A DNA stretch of 64,000 nt, taken from Octopus vulgaris (lineage: Eukaryota). The notes below the pieces were generated by a model that saw only the letters and a program-made list of their open reading frames with translations, was not told the origin of the DNA and did not search any database. The position numbers and the translations under genes are program-made. Below, piece by piece: positions 11,215-45,059 of this stretch (positions within the stretch are counted from its first letter, which is position 1; every line of letters begins with the position of its first letter). The stretch covers positions 73,780,001 to 73,844,000 of the forward strand of contig OX597823.1 of the NCBI GenBank assembly GCA_951406725.2, given 5' to 3'.

Positions 11215-12889
11215 TATATAACAGATAACTTAGTTCAGAGCTAGCTGCTATTCCTTTCATTCACGGGAGAAGGCCTTTGACAGGGTGATGATTAAGAAAA
11301 ATGTGAAGGTTAATGGTTTATGAAAGCCATGAAACCCATTTCTTTACTACCCACAAGGGGCTAAACACAGAGTAGATAAACAAGGACAGACAAACGGATT
11401 AAGTTGATTACATCGACCCCTGGTACTTATTTAATCGACCCCGAAAGGATGAAAGGCAAAGTTGACCTCGGCGGAATTTGAACTCACAACGTAACGGCAG
11501 ACGAAATACCGCTAAGCATTTCGCCCGGCGTCCTAACGTTTCTGCCAGCTGTCTGTGAGTTATGAGTTGATAATGAGTTAGGTGAGAAATTTAGCATACC
11601 AGTTTTGTGTCCATCAGGACTTGATTCTCAGCTCTCTCTTTTGTATATAAACATCTCTGGGTGATAACAGGAGTTACAGACTGGCTATGAAATCTCCTTT
11701 ATATTGACACTCATTTGGAGAGAACTCTCAAGCATGGATGCATGTGAATCTGACTCAACTTTGGAGAGAAATGGATGCAAAGCCTAAAAAATAAACCTAA
11801 TGAAGACAGCATTTTTAATGATTATTTGCATAATTATTCTCAATATGTCCTGGCAGGTTTGAATGCAAAGTATACTGGTTGCAGTTTTGCATGCACTACT
11901 GGGATACACAATCTGCAGAAAAGGAATTAGTATGAATTCCATATGATGACCCAGGTAGGCTGATCATCATCATGATCATCGTTTAGCGTCCGCTTTCCAT
12001 GCTCGCATGAATGGTGCTCTTTATGTGCCTGGCTTCAACCTCGACTGGCTTCCGTGTTGGTGGCACATGAAAAGCACCATCCGAATCGTGGCCGAAGCCA
12101 GTGCCGCCTCAACTGGCTTCCGTGCAGGTGGCACGTAAAATGCACCAACCCGACCGTGGCTGATGCCAGCCTCGCTTGGCTCCAGTGCAGGTGGCACATA
12201 AAATCACCCACTACACTCTCGGAGTGGTTGGCGTTAGGAAGGGCATCAAGCTGTAGAAACACTGCCAGATCCGACTGGCCTGGTGCAGCCTTCGGGCTCC
12301 CCAGACCCCAGTTGAACCGTCCAACCCATGCTAGCATGGAAAATGGACGCTAAACGATGATGATGATGATGATATATATATATATATATATATATATCTT
12401 GGCTAGCATGGGAGTGTGTATGGAGAACAATGAAGAGTAGCATCTGAAATGTCGTTGAAGATCGATCCTCAAGCTGTAGTTTCAGTACATATGTGTCATC
12501 ATTTAACATCCATCTTCCGTACTGGCATGGGTTGGTTGGTTCAACAGGATCTGATGAGTTGGAGGGCTGCATCATGCTCCAGTGTCTGCTATGGCACAGT
12601 ACCTCCGACTGGATACTATTCCTAATGCCGACCGCTTTACAGAGTAATACTGGGTGCATTTTTGAGGCACCTGCACCAGTGAGGTTACCATGTAACTTGC
12701 AAGATTTGCAAGTCCCTCAACTGAGTGAGAATATAGTGGAGAGGAAGGTGGCCTTATATTAGGTGTTGAGAGGTTAAAGTATGAAAGAAGAGACAAGAAT
12801 GGGTTTATCACAAGCAGAAAAATTGTTCAGAGGGCAATTTTTCGAGTAGAAGTATTATTTCTAAAATTACCACATGTACACCCATTTTA

Positions 12890-13448
12890 TTGGGTTGTCT
12901 GGAAAGTTCGTGCTGATTTTTAAAGGAAAGGAAAAGGTCAATAAATACTTGCCATTACATCTTTAATCAACCAAATATGAACCATTTTGTTGCACAATGC
13001 ATCTTCATCTTTCCTTTAACTTGAAAATACCCTCTCCCCAGAATTGAGGTGGTTTCATGGCAATTCATCAGGGTATCTTTTTATGTCATCCAAGGAATTG
13101 AAATTTTTACCATTAAGACTATTCTGTTGAGACCTGAATAAGTAGAAATCTGAAGGAGCAATATCTGGTGAATATGGAGGGTGGGATAACAAATCCCAGC
13201 CGAGCTGCAATTTTTGTCTGGTTCCCATAGCATCAAGTGCCGAAAATGAACTGCCTTATCTTCCATTTTAAAGGGTTACAGAATTAACACAGGTTATAGG
13301 AACATAAACCTTCTTCCATGAAAAGGTAGCTTAAACTGTGCTCTAAATGGAGGTGTAGTCAAATTCTATTTTATGAACTCAACCATGTTCTAAAATAAGT
13401 CGAAAGGTAAGCTACTATAAATCAACATGAACTTTCCGGACAACCCAA
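12890..13448 (-). mobile_element. Internally deleted mariner element
   Basis: TIRs TTGGGTTGTC(T/C)GGAAAGTTC with TA TSDs; minus strand has N-terminal MEDKAVHFRHLML and the mariner HPPYSPDIAPSDFYLF motif. Confidence 0.92.
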
Positions 13449-14321
13449 TACTTTTTGATTCATCTTCATGGAGGTGGGAGTAGTTGATTGAATCAACCTA
13501 GCCAAAATACCTGCAAAAGAGTGGATTCTGCTAAAACCACTCAAGGACCAGGTTAAACTGAGTGACAGTCTGCCATTCTATAAAAGATGAAGTTCATCCA
13601 ATGAATTTCTATACAATTTCCATCTACTCAGTTTCATGCACTGGGCTTCTGTTTACTTTTTGGTGCATTATGGTAGAAGTCACATGTCCAAGATGCTGTG
13701 AAATAGGATTAAACCAAAAACCATATGATTGTTTTCTATGTGGTATTTTAAAATTTCTGTATTGGATCCTGTGGGCTGTGTTTTCATCTATCTTTTTATC
13801 ATTTTACTTGTTTCAGTCATTAGACTACAGCCATTCTGGGGCTTTGCCTTGAAGAATTTTTAGTCATATGAATCTATCCCAGTACTTTTTAAAGCCTGGT
13901 ACTTATTCTGTTGATCTCTTTTGCTGAACTGCTAAGTTACAGGGATACAAACACACCAACACCAGTTAAGTGGTGGTGGGGGACAAATACACACACATGC
14001 ATACACATACATATGACTGGCTTCTTCTAGTTTCTATCTATCATATCTACTCACAAGCTTTTGGTCAGCCTGAAGCTATAGTAGAAGTCACTAATCCAAG
14101 GTGCCATGCAGTAGGACTGAGCCTGGAACCATGTGGTTGGGAAGCAAGCTTCTTGCCACACAGCCACACTTGTGAGGATCTGGCTGGACGACAGCTTGTG
14201 TTGGTTGGTCACATACCATATGGTCATGATGGATGATAAAGTATTAATATCTCACATGAACTGAAGAGAAGAGGTGAGTAGAGCCCATGTGGTGCAAAGG
14301 AGTGAAGAGAGAAGATTAATT

Positions 14322-15786
14322 TCACTTCACAGCAAAGGTGGGAGTGTAGATGGTCCTGCACAAAGATAGTCCGAACACAAGCTGATGTTGTAGCAAATGA
14401 CCGGTAGAGCGGAAATGGTGTGAGACCGGGGTGTCATTGTTGAGTCTGATGTCTTGGAAGTGCTTCGTGAACTGGTCAGCCAAGCAAAGTCCTTTTTCAC
14501 CGATGTACAGGGAAGGACAGAGAAAGCAGGAGATACAGTAAATGACATTACTAGAAGTGCAGGTAAAGGAGTTGGTGATGTGATAGGGACAATGATGGGT
14601 ACCTGTGAGGATAGTGGTGTTGGAGAGGTAGGGGCAAGTGTGACAGCATGGGTGGGAGCAGGGGAACATGCCAGGTTGAGAGGAGGTGGTTAGGTAAGAA
14701 ACTATGGACCAGGAGGTCACATAGGTTCTGGGCTCGTTTGAAGGCGAGAAGGGGTAGGTTGGAGAAGATATGTGAGGTGGAGTGGTGGTAGGTGAGGGAA
14801 GATGAGCAATAGTAGGATGGGTGCGAGGAGAAAGAGCAGAGACATGGTCCATAGGTTATACACTGGCTAGGGCAGTGTGGACAGTGGTGGACATGTAGGA
14901 TGAAATGGTAAGCCATGAGTTGAGACTGAGCCTCAAAGTCATGGTTGTCATTGCAGAGCCTGCACAGATGGAGAGCTTGGTGTGGGTAGGGTGGGAGGAG
15001 GAGAAGTTAATGTAGGAGTGTGAGTCAGTGTGGATGGAGTTAGTGAGAGCAGAGTGGTGTATTCTGACAGAAATGTCAAAAAATTGAGATAGTCTGGAGA
15101 ATTCGAGGGCAGGATGGAAGGATTGGACAAAAGAGAGGACGTAATCTAATTGTTTGTGGGAGAGTGAGGTCATGCTGATATAGTTATCAATATAACGACC
15201 ATATAGTTCGGGAGTGGGACCAGTGAATTGTGAGAATATTTGGGCCTCAACATAGCCAACGAACAGGTTCGCATAGTTGGGGCCCATTCTTGTTCCCATG
15301 ACCACTCCTGAGAACTATTGGTAAAAATCCCTCGTGAACAAGAAGCAGTTGAGAGAGAGAACAAGTTCGACCAGACGAAGTGTGGAGGTGTCAGGTTGAA
15401 GGTCCAGAAAGTGTTTCAGTGCAAGAAGTTCTTCATTGTTTGGGATCACCGTATATAAACTCTTGATATCAAGAGTGAATGGAAATTTAGAAAAGCCAGA
15501 AGGGAAGGAGAAAGAGTTAAAGAGACAGAGAGCATGGTTAGTGTTGTGGATGTGGGAGGAGAGGGAAGCCACTAGGGTGGGGGTGGGCAAGGATACAGTT
15601 GAGGTATTTAGAGATCATTTCCATGGGGTAGTTGCAGGCAGAAACAATGGGGTGGCCAGGATTGTTGGGCTTGTGAATTTTGGGAAGAAAGTAAATGGTG
15701 GGGGTGCGTGGAGTGCGGACATTGATGTTGCAGGCGGTGGGAGGGAAACAGGAGGAGGAAATGGGGTCATGAATAGTGGAGGACAT
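14322..15786 (-). mobile_element. Degenerate Penelope-like retroelement (Neptune type): RT + Zn-finger linker + GIY-YIG endonuclease
   Basis: IYFLPKIHK, TLDIKSLYT, MGTRMGPNYANLFV, YGRYIDN (RT); PCSHPCCHTC linker; NVIYCISC..C.SLYIGE (GIY-YIG); multiple frameshifts, 5' truncated. Confidence 0.92.
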
Positions 15787-16152
15787 AATATGCTGAGACC
15801 CTCTTCGGTCATGACTGACCGTGGGATTGCACCTAGAGAGTTACCCTCCCAGGCACAAGTCCGGGCAAGGTTGTTTTTATGGAAGACCAGCAGTTGCCCA
15901 TGCATACCAGCCTCCCCTCTCCACACCACTGATGTTATCCAAGAGAAAGGCAAAGGCCGATACAGCTTGGCACCTGTGACGTTGCAACTCATTTCTACAG
16001 CTGATTGAACTGGAGCAATGTGAAAGAACACAACACGCAGCCTGGTCCAGGATTCGAACTCACAACCTCACAATTGTAAGCTTGACGCTCTAACCACTGA
16101 GCCATGTCCCTTCACCGGACATAATATATATATATATATATGTGTTTGTATA

Positions 16153-17964
16153 CAGTAATCACTTGCCATATCACAGTTCCCCTAAAGAACCCTCAGTACA
16201 TCACAGATTTTTCTAGCTAAAATATGTAAGTTAATATCACAGGTTTCTGCAGCGGATAGGTATTTATATTTTTTTAGATTTTAATTATTTCTGTGGCAAA
16301 ATAAGTATTTTCACGCCTAAAAATGAGTAAATTAATAAATAAAAATGCATTACAGTACTGCACTGTATAACACATTAATTAAAATATATTAAATGAAAAT
16401 ATGTAGTGTACTATAGATTAGTAAACAAAGAATTGCTCATACAGTAACTCAGGAAGTGAGTGAGTGGTGTTTTGCATTTGTGTGTAAAATTGCAAATTTA
16501 TTTCAAGCCCTATGGTGTCACCCAAATGTTCTGCACCTTCTAAGGCTTCTGACAGTGAACCCAAGTGCCAGAGGAAGATACTTACTCTAGCAGAGAAGGT
16601 GAGACTCCTCGACATGCTTAATGAATGGAGAAGGTATGCAGCCTATCACTAGAACACCTGTCATCTCTAGTAAAAATGGCAAAAGAACTTCAGAGAATGG
16701 CAGAAGATTGGGACACCTGGGTGACTTGTGCATTGCAGTTCAGAAATGCAATCGACAGAGCTATTGAAGTTTATAAAAAGGCAGCACCAGCAACTACCCA
16801 CCACTATGTTCCTCATCTGCAAAAAAGGAGAAGACACTCCTAAGTTCTGGTATCAAACTCCTTCATCACTCATGGCTAACAGGAGGTGATGCTTGTGATA
16901 GTGGGGCACTTTACTCACTCTAATATCTCTCCCAAAATCAAAATCACATTCGATGACTGGCATCCGTACTAGTGGGGTGCAAAGAGCACCACACGAGCGT
17001 GATAATTGACAGAGTGGCTAACCGGCTTCCATGCAAGTGGCACTTAAAAGGCACCATTCGAGTGTGATTATTACCTGTGTCGCCTTACTGGCACTTGTGC
17101 CCGTGCTAGTAGGGTGCCAAGAGCACCATTTGAGCGTGATCGTTACCAACGTTGCCTTACTGGCACCTGTGCTGGTGGCACCTGTAAAAAGATTTGAGCA
17201 AAGTCGTTGCCAGTACCGCCTGACTGGTCCCAGTGCCAGTGGCACATAAAAAGCACCCACTACACTCTCAGAGTGGTTGGTGTTAGGAAGGGCATCCAGC
17301 TGTAGAAACTCTGCCAAATCTAGATTGGAGCCTGGTGCAGCCATCTGGTTCGCCAGCCCTCAGTCAAAATCGTCCAACCCATGCTAGCATGGAAAGCGGA
17401 TGTTAAACGATGATGTATTTATCTAAAATATATGGCTGAAGTAACTGTCTTCTTGTATGTAGATGAGATCAACTCATTGGATTAACATAACAGCAGAATG
17501 ATAATGTGCTATAGATTATGAATGAAACAAGACAAGAACAAACCATTTCCAGTAAATACAGCGCAAAAAAAGAGAAGACACTCCTGGGCAGAGTTTATAA
17601 AAGCTTGAATCATCACCATCATCATTTAACGTCCGTTTTTCATGCTAGCATTGGTTGGACGGTTCGACTGGGGTTTGGGAAGCCAGGAGGCTGCACCAGG
17701 CCCAGTCTGATCTGGCAGTGTTTCTATAGCTGGATGCCCTTCTTAATGCCAATCACTCCGTGAGTACAGTGGGTGCTTTTTACATACCACCAACACAGGG
17801 GCCAGAGGAGGCTGGCAACGACCATGATGGGTTGGTACTTTTTAAGTGCCACTGGCAAGGACATAAAAATAATTAAAAAAAATATGCAGTACTGTTTCTA
17901 CTTTGCAAATTTTCACTTATTGCAGGGGTGTTTGGGAACGTAACACCTCCGATAGTTAAGGAAT

Positions 17965-17969
<5 letters not shown>
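16153..17969 (+). mobile_element. Degenerate Tigger-like element with nested RTE 3' ends
   Basis: TA-CAGTAATC...GAATTTCTG-TA imperfect TIRs; CENP-B-type N-terminus PKCQRKILTLAEKVRLLDML (~16560-16620) joined to a C-terminal remnant, DDE core missing. Confidence 0.7.
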
Positions 17970-18003
<34 letters not shown>

Positions 18004-18988
18004 GCCTTCAGTTTCTGTCTATCACATCCACTCGTGAGGTTTTGGTTGGCTCGGGCTGTTGTAAAAAAAAACCACCTTCCCAAGGTGATGCTGTGCAGTG
18101 GAACTGAATCCAAAACTACATGATTGGAGAAATCAAGGTTCTTAACCACACAGCTAATTGTGTACCAACAAACCATTTTAAAGTTGTCGATTCACTTGAG
18201 CAAAAAAATCAAGAATTAACAATAAATAAGTATATTTATCAGACAGACAAATAGGATTTTGTGGATTTTATTAAGTTGTACTAACAGGTATCAAACCGTT
18301 TGTTGTTTTGTTTGTGATCAAAAGTACATTTCACTGTTTTGTTTTGCTTGTCTTATTAGCTCAGGCTAACTTGTGTGTAAAAATTTTCTTGAAGTGTATG
18401 TATGCTGTAATGTGAAAAGTATTGGTTGTGTGTACTGGAAATGGTTTGTTCTTGTCTTGTTTCATTTATCTCTTATATAAAATCCATTCTGTCTGTCTGT
18501 GTGTGTGTGTCTTCTCGGTTCTCGGGCATCCTCCATCCGATTGCGCTCAAATTTGATATGTAGATACCGATGGTATCAGGGCGTGTATAAGTCTTGAAAA
18601 AATTACAAAAATCGATTCCAGGTGAGAATGCGATCGATAAAGCCGTTTTTGTCCTGCTTTTCTTCCATCAACCTCTACATAACTGCGCCTTCCAATTTTT
18701 GTTGTTTTTGTACTGTTTAAAGGCACGTTTCTTTCCTGCCAAGCTTACTGTTTAAACCGTGTTTGTGTTCTCCCAGTCAACAGCCTTATCATTACTGGGG
18801 TCGATATAATCGACTCAATCATTTTGTCTGTCCTTGTTTAGCCCCTTGTGGGGCAATAAAGAAATAAGAAGGGCAAGCATGAGTGTCTTGCTATAGAGGA
18901 GATACATAGATATAAAGCTATCCTGCTAACAACATTGATATCACATCTTGGAAACAAATTTGTTTGATTCCTTTTGTTATTCAAGAAC

Positions 18989-19614
18989 AAGCTGCGAGCT
19001 GGCAGAATCGTTAGCATGCTGGGCGAAATGATTAGTGGTATTTTGTCTGCTGCTACATTCTGAGTTCAAATTCTGCTGAAGTCCACTCTGTCTTTCATCC
19101 TTTTGGGTCGATAAATTAAGTACCTATTTCTTTATTACCCACAAGGGGCTACACACAGAGGGGACAAACAAGGACAAACGGATTAAATTGATTACATTGA
19201 CCCCAGTGCGTAACTGGTTCTTAATTTATCGACCCCGAAAGGATGAAAGGCAAAGTCAACCTCGGCGGGATTTGAACTCCCAACGTAACGCAGAGGAAAT
19301 ACCGCTAAGCATTTCACCCGGCGTGCTAACGTTTCTGCCAGCTTGTATCAGTTACGCACTGGGGTCGATATAATCGACTTAAATCCGTTTGTCTGCCCTT
19401 GTTTGTCCTCTCTGTGTTTAGCCCCTTGTGGGTAGTAAAGAAATAGGTATTTCGCCTGCTGCTACATTCTGAGTTCAAATTCCGCTGAAGTCCACTTTGC
19501 CTTTCATCCTTTTTGGTTGATATATTAAGTGCTACTTGAGTATTGGGGTTGATGTGATTGACTGCCCCCCTCCCCACAAAATCCAGACCTTGTGCCTATA
19601 GTAGAAAAGATTAT
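18989..19614. mobile_element. Nested SINE family 1 cluster (minus copy inside an internally duplicated plus copy)
   Basis: Plus copy broken at AAGTAC (~19123) by a minus copy (~19124-19343), resumes at CAGTTACGCAC, then repeats from GTATTTCG at ~19447. Confidence 0.8.
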
Positions 19615-20631
19615 TCAAGAACTATGTTGATTGATATTCGGCTACGTTGGTTCCTACATCAGTTGTTTTATTACAATCTGTCTTAATAGTCTTTCAAAGT
19701 TTGAGGGGCTGATTCTGTCTTTTGCTCACAAGCAGTATTATGCTATGGCTTATTTCATCTGTATGAGTTAATTATACTCTATTCACTCTGAATTAATTCC
19801 TGATTGAGATATCAGTCTAACCTGGAGTGGTTCATAATTTCTTCTATGTCAACACCAAATTAGAGCTGCGGTTAGTTTCATAAGCCATTGTTATTAATTA
19901 TTGTATTTGTCTGCCCATTGAATTGAATGAACTAAGACATTTTCCTCCTGAGCGAGAGATTGTCTGTTAACTCAAAGCATGTGACACGAATGTGCATTAA
20001 TAGAACCTTTATTTTAAGCTCATTTTAACATATATACTTACTTTACTTACACTTGTTTCAATCATGTGACTGTGGCCATGCTGGAGCACCGCCTTTAGTC
20101 GAGCAAATCAACCCCAGAGCTTATTCTTTGTAAGCCTAGTACTTATTCTATCGGTCTCTTTTGCTGAACCACTAAGTTACAGACGTAAACACACCACCAT
20201 CAGTTGTCAAGCAATGTTGGAGGGGGGGGGGAGAAACACAGGCACACAAACATATACACACACACATACATATATATATATATACATATATGCGACAGGC
20301 TTCTTTCAGTTTCCATCTACTAAATCCACTCACAAGGCTTTGGTCGGCCCGCGGCTAGTAGAAGACACTTGCCCAAGATGCCATGCAGTGGGACTGAACC
20401 CAGAGCCATGTGGTTGGTAAGCAAGCTACTTACCACACAGCCACTCCTATGCCTATGTGACTATTCTTTCTGCAATTCCATTTGATTTTGGAAGTAATTT
20501 CATTGGTTTACATTCAATCTTACCAAGTTGGTATACAAGTCATGGCAAAATTCACAGGAATTGTCAGACACTGATATTTCTGGAGTGCTCTTTCTGGCAA
20601 ACAAAGTTCTTAATATCTGCCTAACTGTTTC

Positions 20632-23542: not shown

Positions 23543-24759
23543 ATGTGGAGGCTCATGGATGGGTGGAGTTCTTATGGCATGGACTCATGTGAAAGAAGTT
23601 TTGATTGTTCTCTTGGCAAACTGACTTAGCCATAAAGAGTATAGAACAAAAGTATGTGTCTTTTAATGTTGAGGTAACATAAAATATTGCCAGATGTTAT
23701 ATTGTTGATAAAAATAGACAAATGCTTTTTAGAGTTTTCCAAAATATTTAATGGTAGATCTCATGACTCAGAATCATATTAGAATTTTTTTTCTTTTTTT
23801 TTTGCAATTTGATTCAAAAATTTGTTTTTCTTCAATTTGGAAGTTTTTTTAAATACAAAAGTAATCTTGAATGCATTTTTAAAATAACACAAAAATACAC
23901 CAGTAAAATATTGAAGATGGCCTAGCTTCTTAGAATGCGAAAAAGGAATTAAATATATTCCTTTTTTGCATTGTAAGAAGCTCTCCGTTTTCACTATTTT
24001 GCTATTTTTACTTTTTTTTTTATCTCAATGCTTCAAGCAAGCTCTAATGCTCTTCCAACACAAATATATATTGTATTCCTACGTCATGTAAACAGCTACT
24101 CTACTTTGCTAGAATTAATAGACTATTTTTAGTTGTGTAGAAACTGGCAGACAACATGGGAACCTATACACATCACATGTCCTGCATAAAATAGGAGCCA
24201 AAAGTCCTTCAATAATACACTGTCTTATTACAGGAAGAACACATTAGATAATCTTTTCTACTCTAGAGAAAAGGCCTGAAATTTTGGTGGGAGGGAGTCA
24301 GTCGATTAGATTGACCTCCAGTCTGCAACTGGTACTTAATTTATCGACCCCGAAAGGATGAAAGGCAAAGTCAACCTTGGTGGAATTTGAACTCAGAACA
24401 TAAAGACAGATGAAATGCCACTTAGCATTTCATCCAGCGTGCTAATGTTTCTGCCAGCTCGCCGCCTTTGGATAATGTGACCCTTATGTACTTTGTTCTA
24501 GAAAAAGATGTGATGGTCAAGATTGGAATGCCTTTAATCATTAAATCTCTTTGATTGAGGCCTAGCTTGCATTAATCCTTTAGCATTGAAACTGGCCGTA
24601 TCCAGCCAAACTATTGTACTTGTTTTATATTCAAACTGGTCAGATCTGGCCTCTCACACTCACCATACAATGTCCTTGTAAAAATAAACAATCACATCAT
24701 TGAAATCTTGAAGCTACAATATCATGCATGATTATTCCATCAAATGTATAGCTTATTTA

Positions 24760-25153
24760 CTCTCTCTCTCTCTTTTACTCTTTCACTTGTTTCAGTCATT
24801 TGACTGTGGCCATGCTGGAGCACCACCTTTAGTCGAACAAATCGACCCCAGGACTTATTGTTTGTAAGCCTAGTACTTATTCTATCGGTCTCATTTGCCG
24901 AACCACTAAGTTATGGGGACGTAAACATACCAGCATCGGTTGTCAAGTGATGTTGGTGGGGACAAACACAGACATACAAACACACACACGATGGGCTTCA
25001 TCAGTTTCTATCTACCAAATCTACTCACAAGGCTTTGGTCGGTCCAAGGCTATAGTAGAAGACACTTGCCCAAGGTGCCATGCAGTGGGACTGAACATGG
25101 AACTATGTGGTTCGTAAGCAAGATACTTATCACACAGCCATTCCTACGCCTAT
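24760..25153 (-). mobile_element. Full-length SINE family 2 copy (3' part of tRNA-SINE chimera)
   Basis: Begins ATAGGCGTAGG like copies ending near 20455 and 26635; ends in GAGTAAAAGAGAGAG tail; TSD TAGCTTATTTA at 24749-24759 and 25250-25260. Confidence 0.9.
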
Positions 25154-25168
25154 AAAAAAAGTCATTTG

Positions 25169-25241
25169 AGGTTCCAGTGAGTTTTGAACTCACGACCTTC
25201 TGTGTGTTAAGCAGATGTGATAGCCACTACACCATGGAACC
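25169..25241 (-). pseudogene. tRNA-Val-like retrocopy (AAC anticodon), fused to a SINE
   Basis: GGTTCCATGGTGTAGTGGCTATCACATCTGCTTAACACACAGAAGGTCGTGAGTTCAAAACTCACTGGAACCT: perfect 7-bp acceptor and 5-bp T stems, one anticodon-stem mismatch, T discriminator; lies inside a TSD with the SINE. Confidence 0.85.
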
Positions 25242-25511
25242 AGCTATATTAGCTTATTTATTCACATTGTTTTGAATTAATCTGAATGCTAAATCATTAG
25301 AGATGCTTTAGCATTTAAACCAGACATATCTGGCCAAAATAATCTAACTGGCAAGATCCGGCCTCTCCCATTTACCCTACAATATTATTCTAAAAAGAAA
25401 TAATGGCAACATTTAAATCTCAAAGCTACAAAGTGAGGCATGACTAATTCATATCAATCTGAATAAACAAGCATTACATTTAACAAAGAAATGTAAATAC
25501 TGTAGGGTTAA

Positions 25512-25725
25512 CCCTTTCGTTACTGTATTTATTTTGAGATGCTCTGTGTTCCTTTCAATTATTTTAAATATAACAAAGAATTTAGTAAAATAACTTAGCA
25601 ATCATTAAGCTGGTGTTAGGAACATAAATTGTGACTAAGGTTTGGTGGGAGATTTTAATTCAAAACTTATGAAAACAAGACATTTGTATTCAGAGCCGGT
25701 TTCAGCCGGGTTGGTAATGAAAGGG
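25512..25725. mobile_element. piggyBac-type MITE
   Basis: TTAA-CCCTTTCGTTAC...GTAATGAAAGGG-TTAA; second copy in opposite orientation at 45392-45611. Confidence 0.88.
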
Positions 25726-43550: not shown

Positions 43551-44262
43551 GTATATTCACAGTACTTTTTTTCTTACCCTTTTTGTAGTTTTTAGCTCAG
43601 TTTTGTCTCGCACGTAAAAGGCACCATCCGATCGTGGCCGTTTGCCAGCCTCCCCTGGCACCTGTGCCAATGGCACGTAAAAAACACCCACTACGCTCAC
43701 GGAGTGGTTGGCGTTAGGAAGGGCATCCAGCTGTAGAAACACTGCCAGATCAGACTGGGCCTGGTGCAGCCTCCTGGCTTCCGAGACCTCAGTTGAACCG
43801 TCCAACCCATGCTAGCATGGAAAGCGGATGTTAAACGATGATGATGATCTTAAAACTTTTACAAATGAGGTGACTGGATAGAGACTAGCTCTTATAACTT
43901 TTGAATTCAAATCCACTGAAGGCATTTTGTTGTTTCTGGGTAAGGAACTCTACTTTACATGCCTTGTTTCATCTAGCTGTCAGAAACAGGAAATGTAATT
44001 CTGTCAAAATTTTCTACATTTGACTAACATCTTGTTCAGGAGGGGAATTACCTGGTCATTCATAACAAAATATTGTGTGTGTTGATTACCATAAATCGTT
44101 CTATGCTACTGTGAATGGAATGGTTTTGTTGGATCAGTTATTTTAATAACTGGTTGCCTTTCATTGAGAACTATCATCATCATCATTGTTCGACCGTGGT
44201 CGAGACTTTCATAGTCTTTTCAAATGGTTAATAATGTGTGCGCGCGCCACTTGAGACAAGTT

Positions 44263-44368
44263 GATTTTGCTTCGGCAATACAAATACTAAAATTGGAACG
44301 ATACAAAGAAGATTAGCATAGCCCCTGCGCAAGGATGACACGCAAATTCGTGAAGCGTTCCATATTTT
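44263..44368 (+). pseudogene. RNU6: U6 snRNA retrocopy/pseudogene
   Basis: Near-identical to U6 over ~106 nt (GCTTCGGC...ATACTAAAATTGGAACGATAC...GCCCCTGCGCAAGGATGACACGCAAATTCGTGAAGCGTTCCATATTTT); ACAGAGA box reads ACAAAGA and ATGG reads ATAG. Confidence 0.95.
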
Positions 44369-44375
44369 CTAAAAA

Positions 44376-44785
44376 GGCGACGAACTGGCGGAAACGTTAG
44401 CACGGTGGGTGAAATGCTTAGCGGTATTTCGTCAGCCGCTACTTTCTGAGTTCAAATTCCGCTGAGGTCGACTTTGCCTTTCATCCTTTCGGGGTTGATT
44501 AAATAAGTACCAGTTACGCACTGGGGTCAATGTAATCGACTTAATCCGTTTGTTTGTCCTTGTCCTTTCTGTGTTCAGCCCCTTGTGGGTAGTAAAGGAA
44601 TAGGTATTTCGTCAGCCGCTACTTTCTGAGTTCAAATTCCGCCGTGGTCGACTTTGCCATTCATCCTTTCGGGGTCGATTAAATAAGTACCAGTTACGCA
44701 CTGGGGTCGATATAATCGACTTAATCCGTTTGTCTGTCCTTGTTTGTCCCCTCTGTGTGTAGCCTCTTGTGGGCAGTAAAGAGAT
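44376..44785 (+). mobile_element. SINE family 1 (internally duplicated), 3' part of U6-SINE chimera
   Basis: Starts at the family 5' end 7 nt after the U6 oligo-T; segment from GTATTTCG repeated at ~44604. Confidence 0.9.
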
Positions 44786-45059
44786 AAGTCGATTTTGCTG
44801 AAGTCTATGACGATAGCTGTAGTAGCAAGGTTCAGATTAACAATTCAGTACCTCGGGATCCATCATTTCAATTTTCCAGCTATTGTGAGTCTATATTCAT
44901 GGTATCTGTTTGTTATCCTCAGAGAAAGTTAGAAAACCAGTGCTTGGTATTGTAAATTTGGGATATATTGAGTACAGCTTTGGTTCGAATATCTGTTAAA
45001 CAAATTTGATTTTCGTTGCTATTTATTATCTTGCTCCCTTATTTTTGTCTGTTTTTCAG

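Follow-up and report, generated by a model that had tools for sequence, protein, structure and literature searches.

A putative pre-tRNA-Val joined to a full-length SINE in the octopus genome, and its genome-wide counterparts

How does an apparently unprocessed tRNA come to lie directly against the 5' end of a complete SINE? The question is raised by a locus in the stretch of DNA analysed here, a window of 64,000 nucleotides (G000:C10:73,780,001-73,844,000) in a 2.8-Gb genome. The sequence-only reading of this locus had listed a target site duplication (TSD), a leader, a 73-nt tRNA-Val without CCA, a trailer, TTTTTTT, a SINE and the second TSD copy, and all of these parts were found where it had placed them (Table 1). 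The SINEs of the window are taken by us to resemble octopus SINEs, and two families are concerned. Family A is ~235 nt long, with 34,230 exact head motifs genome-wide, and family B is ~390-410 nt long, with 56,388.

Table 1. Parts and flanks of the tRNA-Val/SINE element, and the companion U6 chimera, in window positions.
Feature	Position	Strand	Evidence
TSD, upstream copy, TAAATAAGCTA	25250..25260	-	Sequence; single copy in 6/6 paralogous host repeats
8-nt 5' extension ATATAGCT, likely pre-tRNA leader, part may be untemplated	25242..25249	-	Sequence
tRNA-Val(AAC) retrocopy, 73 nt, no CCA, 4 substitutions	25169..25241	-	ARAGORN (Val-AAC); Rfam (RF00005, 57.1 bits)
3' trailer CAAATGAC, common to chimeras at C22, C5 and C7	25161..25168	-	Sequence, genome matches
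T7, copied Pol III terminator / oligo-U end; fusion junction	25154..25160	-	Sequence
Family B SINE, full-length, from the usual ATA+GGCG start to a AAAAGAGT-type tail	24760..25153	-	Head-motif matches
TSD, downstream copy, TAAATAAGCTA	24749..24759	-	Sequence
Older host repeat, upstream flank	25261..25300	.	Paralogue alignment
Older host repeat, downstream flank, colinear with upstream flank in paralogues	24700..24748	.	Paralogue alignment
Companion chimera: U6, T4 and family-A SINE with internal duplication	44258..44799	+	Rfam, sequence

The element joins two different RNAs in the same orientation, and its 3' part is a retroelement with a normal tail. The SINE head begins ATA+GGCGTAGG at 25153 (minus strand), directly after T7. 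Compared with the intact gene copy L002, the tRNA has changes at 4/73 positions, three of them CpG to CpA, and is therefore regarded as a decaying retrocopy. It does not have the features of a functional tRNA gene: besides these changes, its upstream sequence is host repeat, unlike that of the tRNA-Val genes in clusters. The last 4 nt of the leader are the bases that precede the tRNA-Val genes L002 and L006, and the 8-nt extension is likely a true transcribed leader. The predicted fold of the pre-tRNA gave a z of -1.2, which is uninformative.

The 11-bp TSD needed testing, because family-B copies nearly always lack a TSD and because the tail repeat of the SINE is similar to the first four bases of the duplication. 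The tail could be located in 23 of 30 family-B controls, and a TSD was present in 0-1 of these 23 ordinary copies; the sole one with a duplication match of at least 10 sits in a TA microsatellite. The 11-mer TAAATAAGCTA has two sites only on the plus strand of the 64-kb window, which are the two TSD copies. When the unit and one 11-mer were removed, the flanks aligned gap-free over the junction with 6/6 paralogues of the older host repeat, all of which carry the 11-mer once. The 501-nt unit therefore went in as one insertion, and the 8-nt extension belongs to it and not to the target. Judged by these paralogous empty sites, the tRNA and the SINE are shown to have come as a single retro-insertion within one TSD, as the first reading had it. 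In four public read runs over 24450-25700, repeat reads dominated and no informative joint was obtained.

A second Pol III RNA, U6, had been described as joined to a different full-length SINE within 20 kb, and it is present. The U6 (44263-44369, Rfam) is followed by T4 and the family-A head, and the chimera is flanked by duplications that match at 13/14 positions (44258-44271 and 44786-44799). The window also contains a tRNA-Trp (8713-8784, minus strand) with a trailer and T5, AT-rich upstream sequence and no retroelement at its terminator. It is likely a real gene and served as a local negative control.

Similar joins were searched for genome-wide with a pattern composed of T-loop, gap, T4 and SINE head, which gave 39 matches for family A and 105 for family B, 100 of the latter being listed and examined. 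Matches for Rfam (19/39 and 55/100, respectively) were chosen by eye. At gathering score, a tRNA was found directly upstream of the head in 14 family-A and 27 family-B matches; one of the 27 was reclassed as a tRNA-like cassette, which left 26 and a total of at least 40 Rfam-confirmed tRNAs adjoining SINE heads. The remaining family-A matches were sorted into 12 SINE pieces, 1 cassette and 12 background matches without assignment. The remaining listed family-B matches comprised 13 more tRNAs recognised by BLAST to the 26, 20 SINE pieces, 13 hammerhead-type donors, 5 cassettes and 23 background matches without assignment. Assuming 2,000-20,000 tRNA loci, chance adjacency would yield 0.07-0.7 tRNAs (family A) and 0.2-2.2 (family B), against the 14 and 26 found. 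These counts are lower bounds, and the window element itself was missed by the pattern. The T-runs of the confirmed chimeras are T4-T8 long, T4 being built into both main patterns. The donors span ~15 amino-acid types (ARAGORN labels, some corrected by eye), and six of them have Rfam spans of 92-119 nt that correspond to retained introns (L088, L089, L141, L143, L148 and L162). A direct pattern found 51 U6-head fusions in the genome. With tRNA and U6 fusions far above chance, and 5S and 7SL fusions also present (see below), the suggested general capture route for Pol III RNAs and the expected enrichment over chance adjacency are both supported.

TSDs of at least 10 bp enclose tRNA and SINE together in 8 of 15 family-A tRNA chimeras (the 14 and L005), and in none does the TSD end at the T-run; the null for this test was 2/210 swapped pairs. 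Ordinary family-A copies had a TSD ending at the head in 11/30. Family-B chimeras other than the window element mostly lack a TSD, as do the controls. That these structures arose in two events, a SINE being inserted later, by chance or target preference, into the T-run of a pre-existing tRNA gene or retrocopy, is hardly credible. The host repeat in the window is colinear when tRNA and SINE are both taken out, the family-A TSDs enclose the tRNA, and the downstream flank of the parent repeat resumes after the SINE in 0/20 chimeras whose donor repeats have known flanks. Moreover, T4 lies just upstream of only 2/30 ordinary heads in each family, and one of them is in fact part of a chimera. What the two-event reading can claim is that most family-B cases are beyond TSD testing, since that family as a rule has no TSD, and that 23/100 listed family-B and 12/39 family-A matches are unassigned background.

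The trailer CAAATGAC occurs four times in the genome, before family B in the window and at C5 and before family A at C22 and C7, and its four carriers have four different 5' ends. The C22 chimera has a tRNA without its first bases, a family-A SINE and a 16-bp duplication enclosing both, and those at C5 and C7 each have the tRNA 3' end alone. Genome-wide, the exact 19-mer matched twice and a 17-mer with one mismatch 10 times (control, 7). The exact trailer with T4 occurred twice, on different SINEs. A source tRNA-Val locus with the same leader and trailer had been proposed as a check, and no such gene was found in the assembly: of the 10 17-mer matches, 4 were chimeras and 0 were genes. A 10-mer common to the trailer and the family-B tail was considered as a cause of the fusion and rejected, because family-A SINEs also follow the trailer and real genes have related ones.

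These data bear on the read-through route that the sequence-only reading had offered, in which a SINE inserted behind the tRNA-Val terminator, Pol III passed the T-run and the two were retroposed as a joint transcript. A single read-through locus is rejected, because one trailer sits on both SINE families. Donor and partner are not adjacent at the trailer-matched likely sources for L028, L344, L341, L342, L004 and L343. The likely source genes L347, L348, L349 and L350 run into sequence that is not the chimera partner. No partner lies downstream of the likely sources, which map to C25:19.02-19.03 Mb and C23:14.45 Mb. A family-A-like remnant lies behind L346, whereas the matching chimera L343 has a family-B tail. 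In addition, T7 is a strong terminator and the SINE parts of same-donor pairs are not closely related. Although the source of the window trailer is missing from the assembly and some gene-like tRNA-Val copies (L002 and L346) are closely trailed by decayed SINE heads, read-through is considered very unlikely. The latter two loci (G000:C25:19905073 and C25:19019900, respectively) are intact tRNA-Val copies with heavily decayed heads 1-10 nt past the terminator; either the heads were inserted behind genes long ago, or the loci are old chimeras in which the tRNA was kept as a gene.

Samples of Pol III RNA copies were also taken regardless of partner. Exact tRNA-Val 5' ends numbered 107, of which 100 were listed and 10 lay outside clusters. 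Eight of these 10 dispersed copies consist of trailer, T-run and retroelement, the other two being gene-like; the partner is a whole family-A SINE in two, a truncated third SINE in one and a tail in five, and all 8 copies are sense and whole to the terminator. The U6 sample (the first 30 of 196 3' ends) contained 7 copies in a tandem array, 1 gene-like copy, 8 joined to a whole head, 12 to a tail and 2 to another U6. Hence 22/23 non-array copies were fused, and a full head followed the U6 end in 8/30, compared with 0.00016 per site by chance. Among the best Rfam matches outside arrays, 11/12 5S copies (4 heads and 7 tails) and 10/12 7SL copies (9 tails and 1 truncated SINE) were fused. The usual join is thus to the 3' part of a retroelement, mostly its last 50-60 nt with a near-constant start, and whole SINEs are a large minority; the idea that a full-length SINE is the rule does not hold for these samples. 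It follows from the same counts that the sampled dispersed 'tRNA, U6, 5S and 7SL genes' are mostly retrocopies, which would inflate gene counts. Large arrays of these RNAs were noted at C25:30.58-30.70 Mb (more than 80 tRNA-Val copies among the matches listed), C1:139.42 Mb (7 U6 copies), C4:35.2-35.3 Mb (~35 5S genes among the matches listed) and C5:143.07-143.12 Mb (14 7SL genes among the matches listed).

At least four related 50-60-nt tails with CCAGCATGGCC-like cores were distinguished (L250, L255, L266, L272, L343-L345 and L356-L378). They have nearly the same start in chimeras and also stand alone, as on the minus strand of L323 (~3495-3540). Nine of their bases are identical to part of U6. 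The short tails are either discrete ultra-short retroposons or the product of a fixed stall site of the reverse transcriptase (RT). None of the 30 best RT loci has a LINE that itself ends in a family-A or family-B tail, and no LINE ORF lay upstream of a family tail in the further loci inspected. A tail match near L323 was considered as the partner LINE and rejected, being a separate short insertion.

The donors had been characterised as nascent Pol III RNAs with oligo-U ends. When T was forbidden at the junction, 15 family-A and 25 family-B matches were obtained, in which most tRNA-like donors still end in at least three T's and the SINE begins a few bases earlier. The Asp donors L287 and L352 end without a T-run, several 5S donors have just one terminal T, and the 7SL join L372 has no T. 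A pattern for CCA ends gave 10 matches, one of which is a real tRNA piece (tRNA-Ile, L174). The near-constant feature of the donors is thus a terminal U and not a long run. The description as U-ended nascent Pol III RNAs was borne out, but a long oligo-U is not obligatory, given the single-T 5S and CCA-ended tRNA donors.

For the window element, we favour, at a probability of roughly three in four, a reading of these sequences in which a LINE RT finished copying the SINE RNA and then jumped end-to-end, in the nucleus, onto a U-ended nascent pre-tRNA. Directly visible across the set are single insertions, independent events, several partners, sense orientation, variable loss of the donor 5' end and serial joins, and the suggested jumping of the RT onto oligo-U 3' ends appears to be the best reading of them. 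Target-primed reverse transcription would begin on the SINE tail that the RT recognises. On reaching the 5' end of the template, the RT would add one or two untemplated A's; alternatively, it may stall just past the tail stem-loop, giving the common tail-only partners. The untemplated A's would pair with the terminal U of a nearby Pol III RNA, and copying would proceed to or towards the donor 5' end, which would then be joined to the target, sometimes by microhomology. Since nascent and even unspliced pre-tRNAs appear to have been captured, the jump would be placed in the nucleus. The chimera would usually be a dead-end pseudogene, because the copied terminator parts the tRNA from the SINE. 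The untemplated bases added by the R2 RT are mainly A's, and its jumps succeed best when a 1-2-nt overhang can pair with the acceptor 3' end; overhangs of at least 3 nt, the majority under balanced dNTPs, are unproductive (PMC8857657). R2 belongs to another LINE clade, and its jumping data are from in vitro work.

The main competitor to RT jumping is that RNA ligation came first, a ligase joining the 3' end of the pre-tRNA to the 5' end of the SINE RNA and the chimera then being retrotransposed. Nascent pre-tRNA, pre-5S and 7SL are expected to have 3'-OH ends, intact SINE heads a 5'-triphosphate, and full-length U6 a cap. Because the expected ends are, by general knowledge, 3'-OH and 5'-triphosphate, RtcB ligation is a poor fit, and the downstream U6 in U6-U6 joins would on the same grounds be capped. 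In human U6/L1 chimeras the RtcB route was shown to use a cyclic-phosphate donor and a 5'-OH acceptor, with a 5'-truncated L1 as partner, and joining was largely lost when the donor had a 3'-OH or the acceptor a 5'-triphosphate (PMC6789731, Moldovan et al. 2019). As in the octopus, the terminal U-run of the donor is there joined to retroelement RNA in one unit (PMC6789731). U6 is among the commonest donors here, tail-only partners could be 5'-OH cleavage products, and an RNA ligated and then copied leaves an identical genomic structure. The donor range, however, extends beyond U6, and ligation as the first step is judged unlikely.

A further alternative is that the pre-tRNA was copied separately, at the opposite end of the break, by a second priming like that of twin priming or by repair-type capture. 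Such an origin has been proposed for human tRNA/L1 and 5S/L1 chimeras, and yields antisense fragments, mostly tRNA halves (PMC11838501, Law and Burns preprint). One octopus chimera, L005, does have a jumbled tRNA 5' end that restarts repeatedly inside the TSD. With 8/8 fused dispersed tRNA-Val copies sense and whole to the terminator, we regard this explanation as most improbable.

Several donors had joined serially, with pre-tRNA-Lys, a truncated U6 and U6 in a row at L268, and U6, U6 and a LINE tail at L275. The LINE tail that ends one U6-U6 chimera is that of the abundant CR1-like LINE. A 5S-5S tandem without a retroelement partner was seen at L357. The last five bases of the L028 TSD are identical to the leader of its likely source gene L350, and the 5' join of L028 reads as one made by microhomology. 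The 5' halves of family-A SINEs ending at an internal T-rich tract were found as donors onto whole SINEs (L038, L039, L056, L058, L060, L066, L079 and others), with a 13-bp TSD around both parts at L060. To judge from their structure, these are SINE-SINE dimers made by the same route.

A hammerhead-like repeat was the donor in 13/100 listed family-B matches (L064, L071, L075, L078, L083, L085, L094, L095, L099, L100, L120, L129 and L135); the repeat is represented by L305-L310 (e.g. G000:C1:62960582). It has CTGATGA...GAAA with a short palindromic stem III, which we take to be a minimal type I hammerhead-like core. Minimal type I hammerheads are typical of Penelope-like elements and retrozymes. 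The donor stops at a T-rich point ~15 nt beyond the predicted cleavage site, and the flanks of its parent are left behind. Two donors of this type, L094 and L120, had no Rfam match at gathering score. Another repeat with conserved flanks (L295-L304) contains a tRNA-like Pol III cassette with A and B boxes, complementary ends and a T-run. Its cassette alone was captured as a donor (L034, L081, L106, L122, L127, L149 and L284), which suggests that it is transcribed as a ~95-nt RNA. A vault-RNA identity of the tRNA-like donors was rejected: no vault match was found among the matches listed (150 of 217), and their parents are the repeat with conserved flanks. Further tRNA-like donors with A and B boxes fit standard tRNAs poorly (L156, L286, L166, L093, L041, L051 and L107), and are candidate unannotated Pol III RNAs; complementary ends and TSDs are present in some of them (L166, L286 and L051).

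Copies of precursor tRNAs have been described elsewhere. Schmitz and colleagues (2004) reportedly found pre-tRNA retropseudogenes mobilised by L1, with nuclear recruitment indicated, and these copies are said to be tailless, primed directly on the RNA and without a retroelement partner. The octopus tRNA chimeras likewise are genomic copies of a precursor tRNA, and add the retroelement partner. Chimeric U6 retrogenes are known as U6-L2 and U6-Mon-1 in platypus, U6-L2/RTE/AnolisSINE2 in anole and U6-RTESINE1 in opossum (PMC4476161, Doucet et al. 2015). As in the octopus, a sense Pol III RNA lies 5' of a LINE or SINE piece in one insertion; the donor is often 5'-truncated, the partner short and the TSD short or absent with L2-type partners, and template switching was invoked (PMC4476161). 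That survey, as described, concerned snRNAs in vertebrates. The octopus set goes beyond it in its donors, with unprocessed pre-tRNAs for ~15 amino acids, trailer-bearing 5S, 7SL, half-SINEs and unannotated RNAs, and in having serial joins and many fusions to SINEs whose 5' end is intact. Primate tRNA/LINE-1 chimeras also have a tRNA and a retroelement in one TSD, and 5S and 7SL chimeras are known as well (PMC11838501). They comprise 21 loci, mostly of antisense tRNA halves ascribed to twin priming, and the main text of that preprint does not mention a trailer, pre-tRNA or precursor; the octopus tRNAs, in contrast, are sense, whole or 5'-truncated, and keep trailer and introns. A search of main texts, with thin coverage of subscription literature, listed no paper that describes chimeras of sense, unprocessed pre-tRNA with SINEs as a class or in a cephalopod. 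The window element is a well-supported member of the chimeric-retrogene kind. U6/SINE chimeras were already known; the octopus chimeras are new in donor range, scale and, by general knowledge of RNA ends, end chemistry.

New SINE heads had been suggested as an outcome of such captures. Head gain by template switching has been proposed for SINEs (Kojima 2015, PMC4494074; Kojima 2018, PMC5786205; Matetovici et al. 2016, PMC4758252), and resembles the present case in that a small RNA is added 5' of an existing element, there as the presumed opening step towards a new or dimeric SINE. The published cases are amplified families, whereas the octopus chimeras are single events in which a terminator parts head from body. 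In a comparison of 55 tRNA chimeras, no combination of donor, junction and SINE was amplified. In the sole pair whose donor ends are identical, the SINE parts are only 93% alike, and a pair with different donors is identical in the first 150 nt of the SINE. Young SINE copies therefore captured different RNAs, and no chimera spread. A captured T4-T8 should halt Pol III before the SINE, and a new family must therefore first lose the T-run. The birth of new heads did not show among these 55, and their origin from such chimeras would be plausible. The same copied terminator could let a captured tRNA act as a gene.

The route by which such chimeras form is contested, template switching having long been the standard explanation and RtcB ligation having been shown for U6/L1 (PMC6789731). 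The octopus offers a large natural set with serial joins, a near-constant terminal U and ends expected to be unsuited to RtcB, in which the jumping route is directly testable. The chimeras mark Pol III units transcribed in the germ line, with their starts and stops, and have brought to light both a tRNA-like cassette and a hammerhead-type RNA, neither of them named in Rfam. They are the raw intermediates assumed by models of SINE head exchange, from which the copied terminator must go first. More broadly, and only tentatively, any U-ended nuclear RNA of this genome, among them unspliced pre-tRNAs, pre-5S, SINE transcripts terminated early and unannotated Pol III RNAs, might be captured by ligase-independent serial jumping; the chimeras would then be a fossil map of where Pol III starts and terminates in the germ line and, having a terminator of their own, may seed working tRNA, 5S and 7SL genes at new sites and supply ready-made SINE heads.
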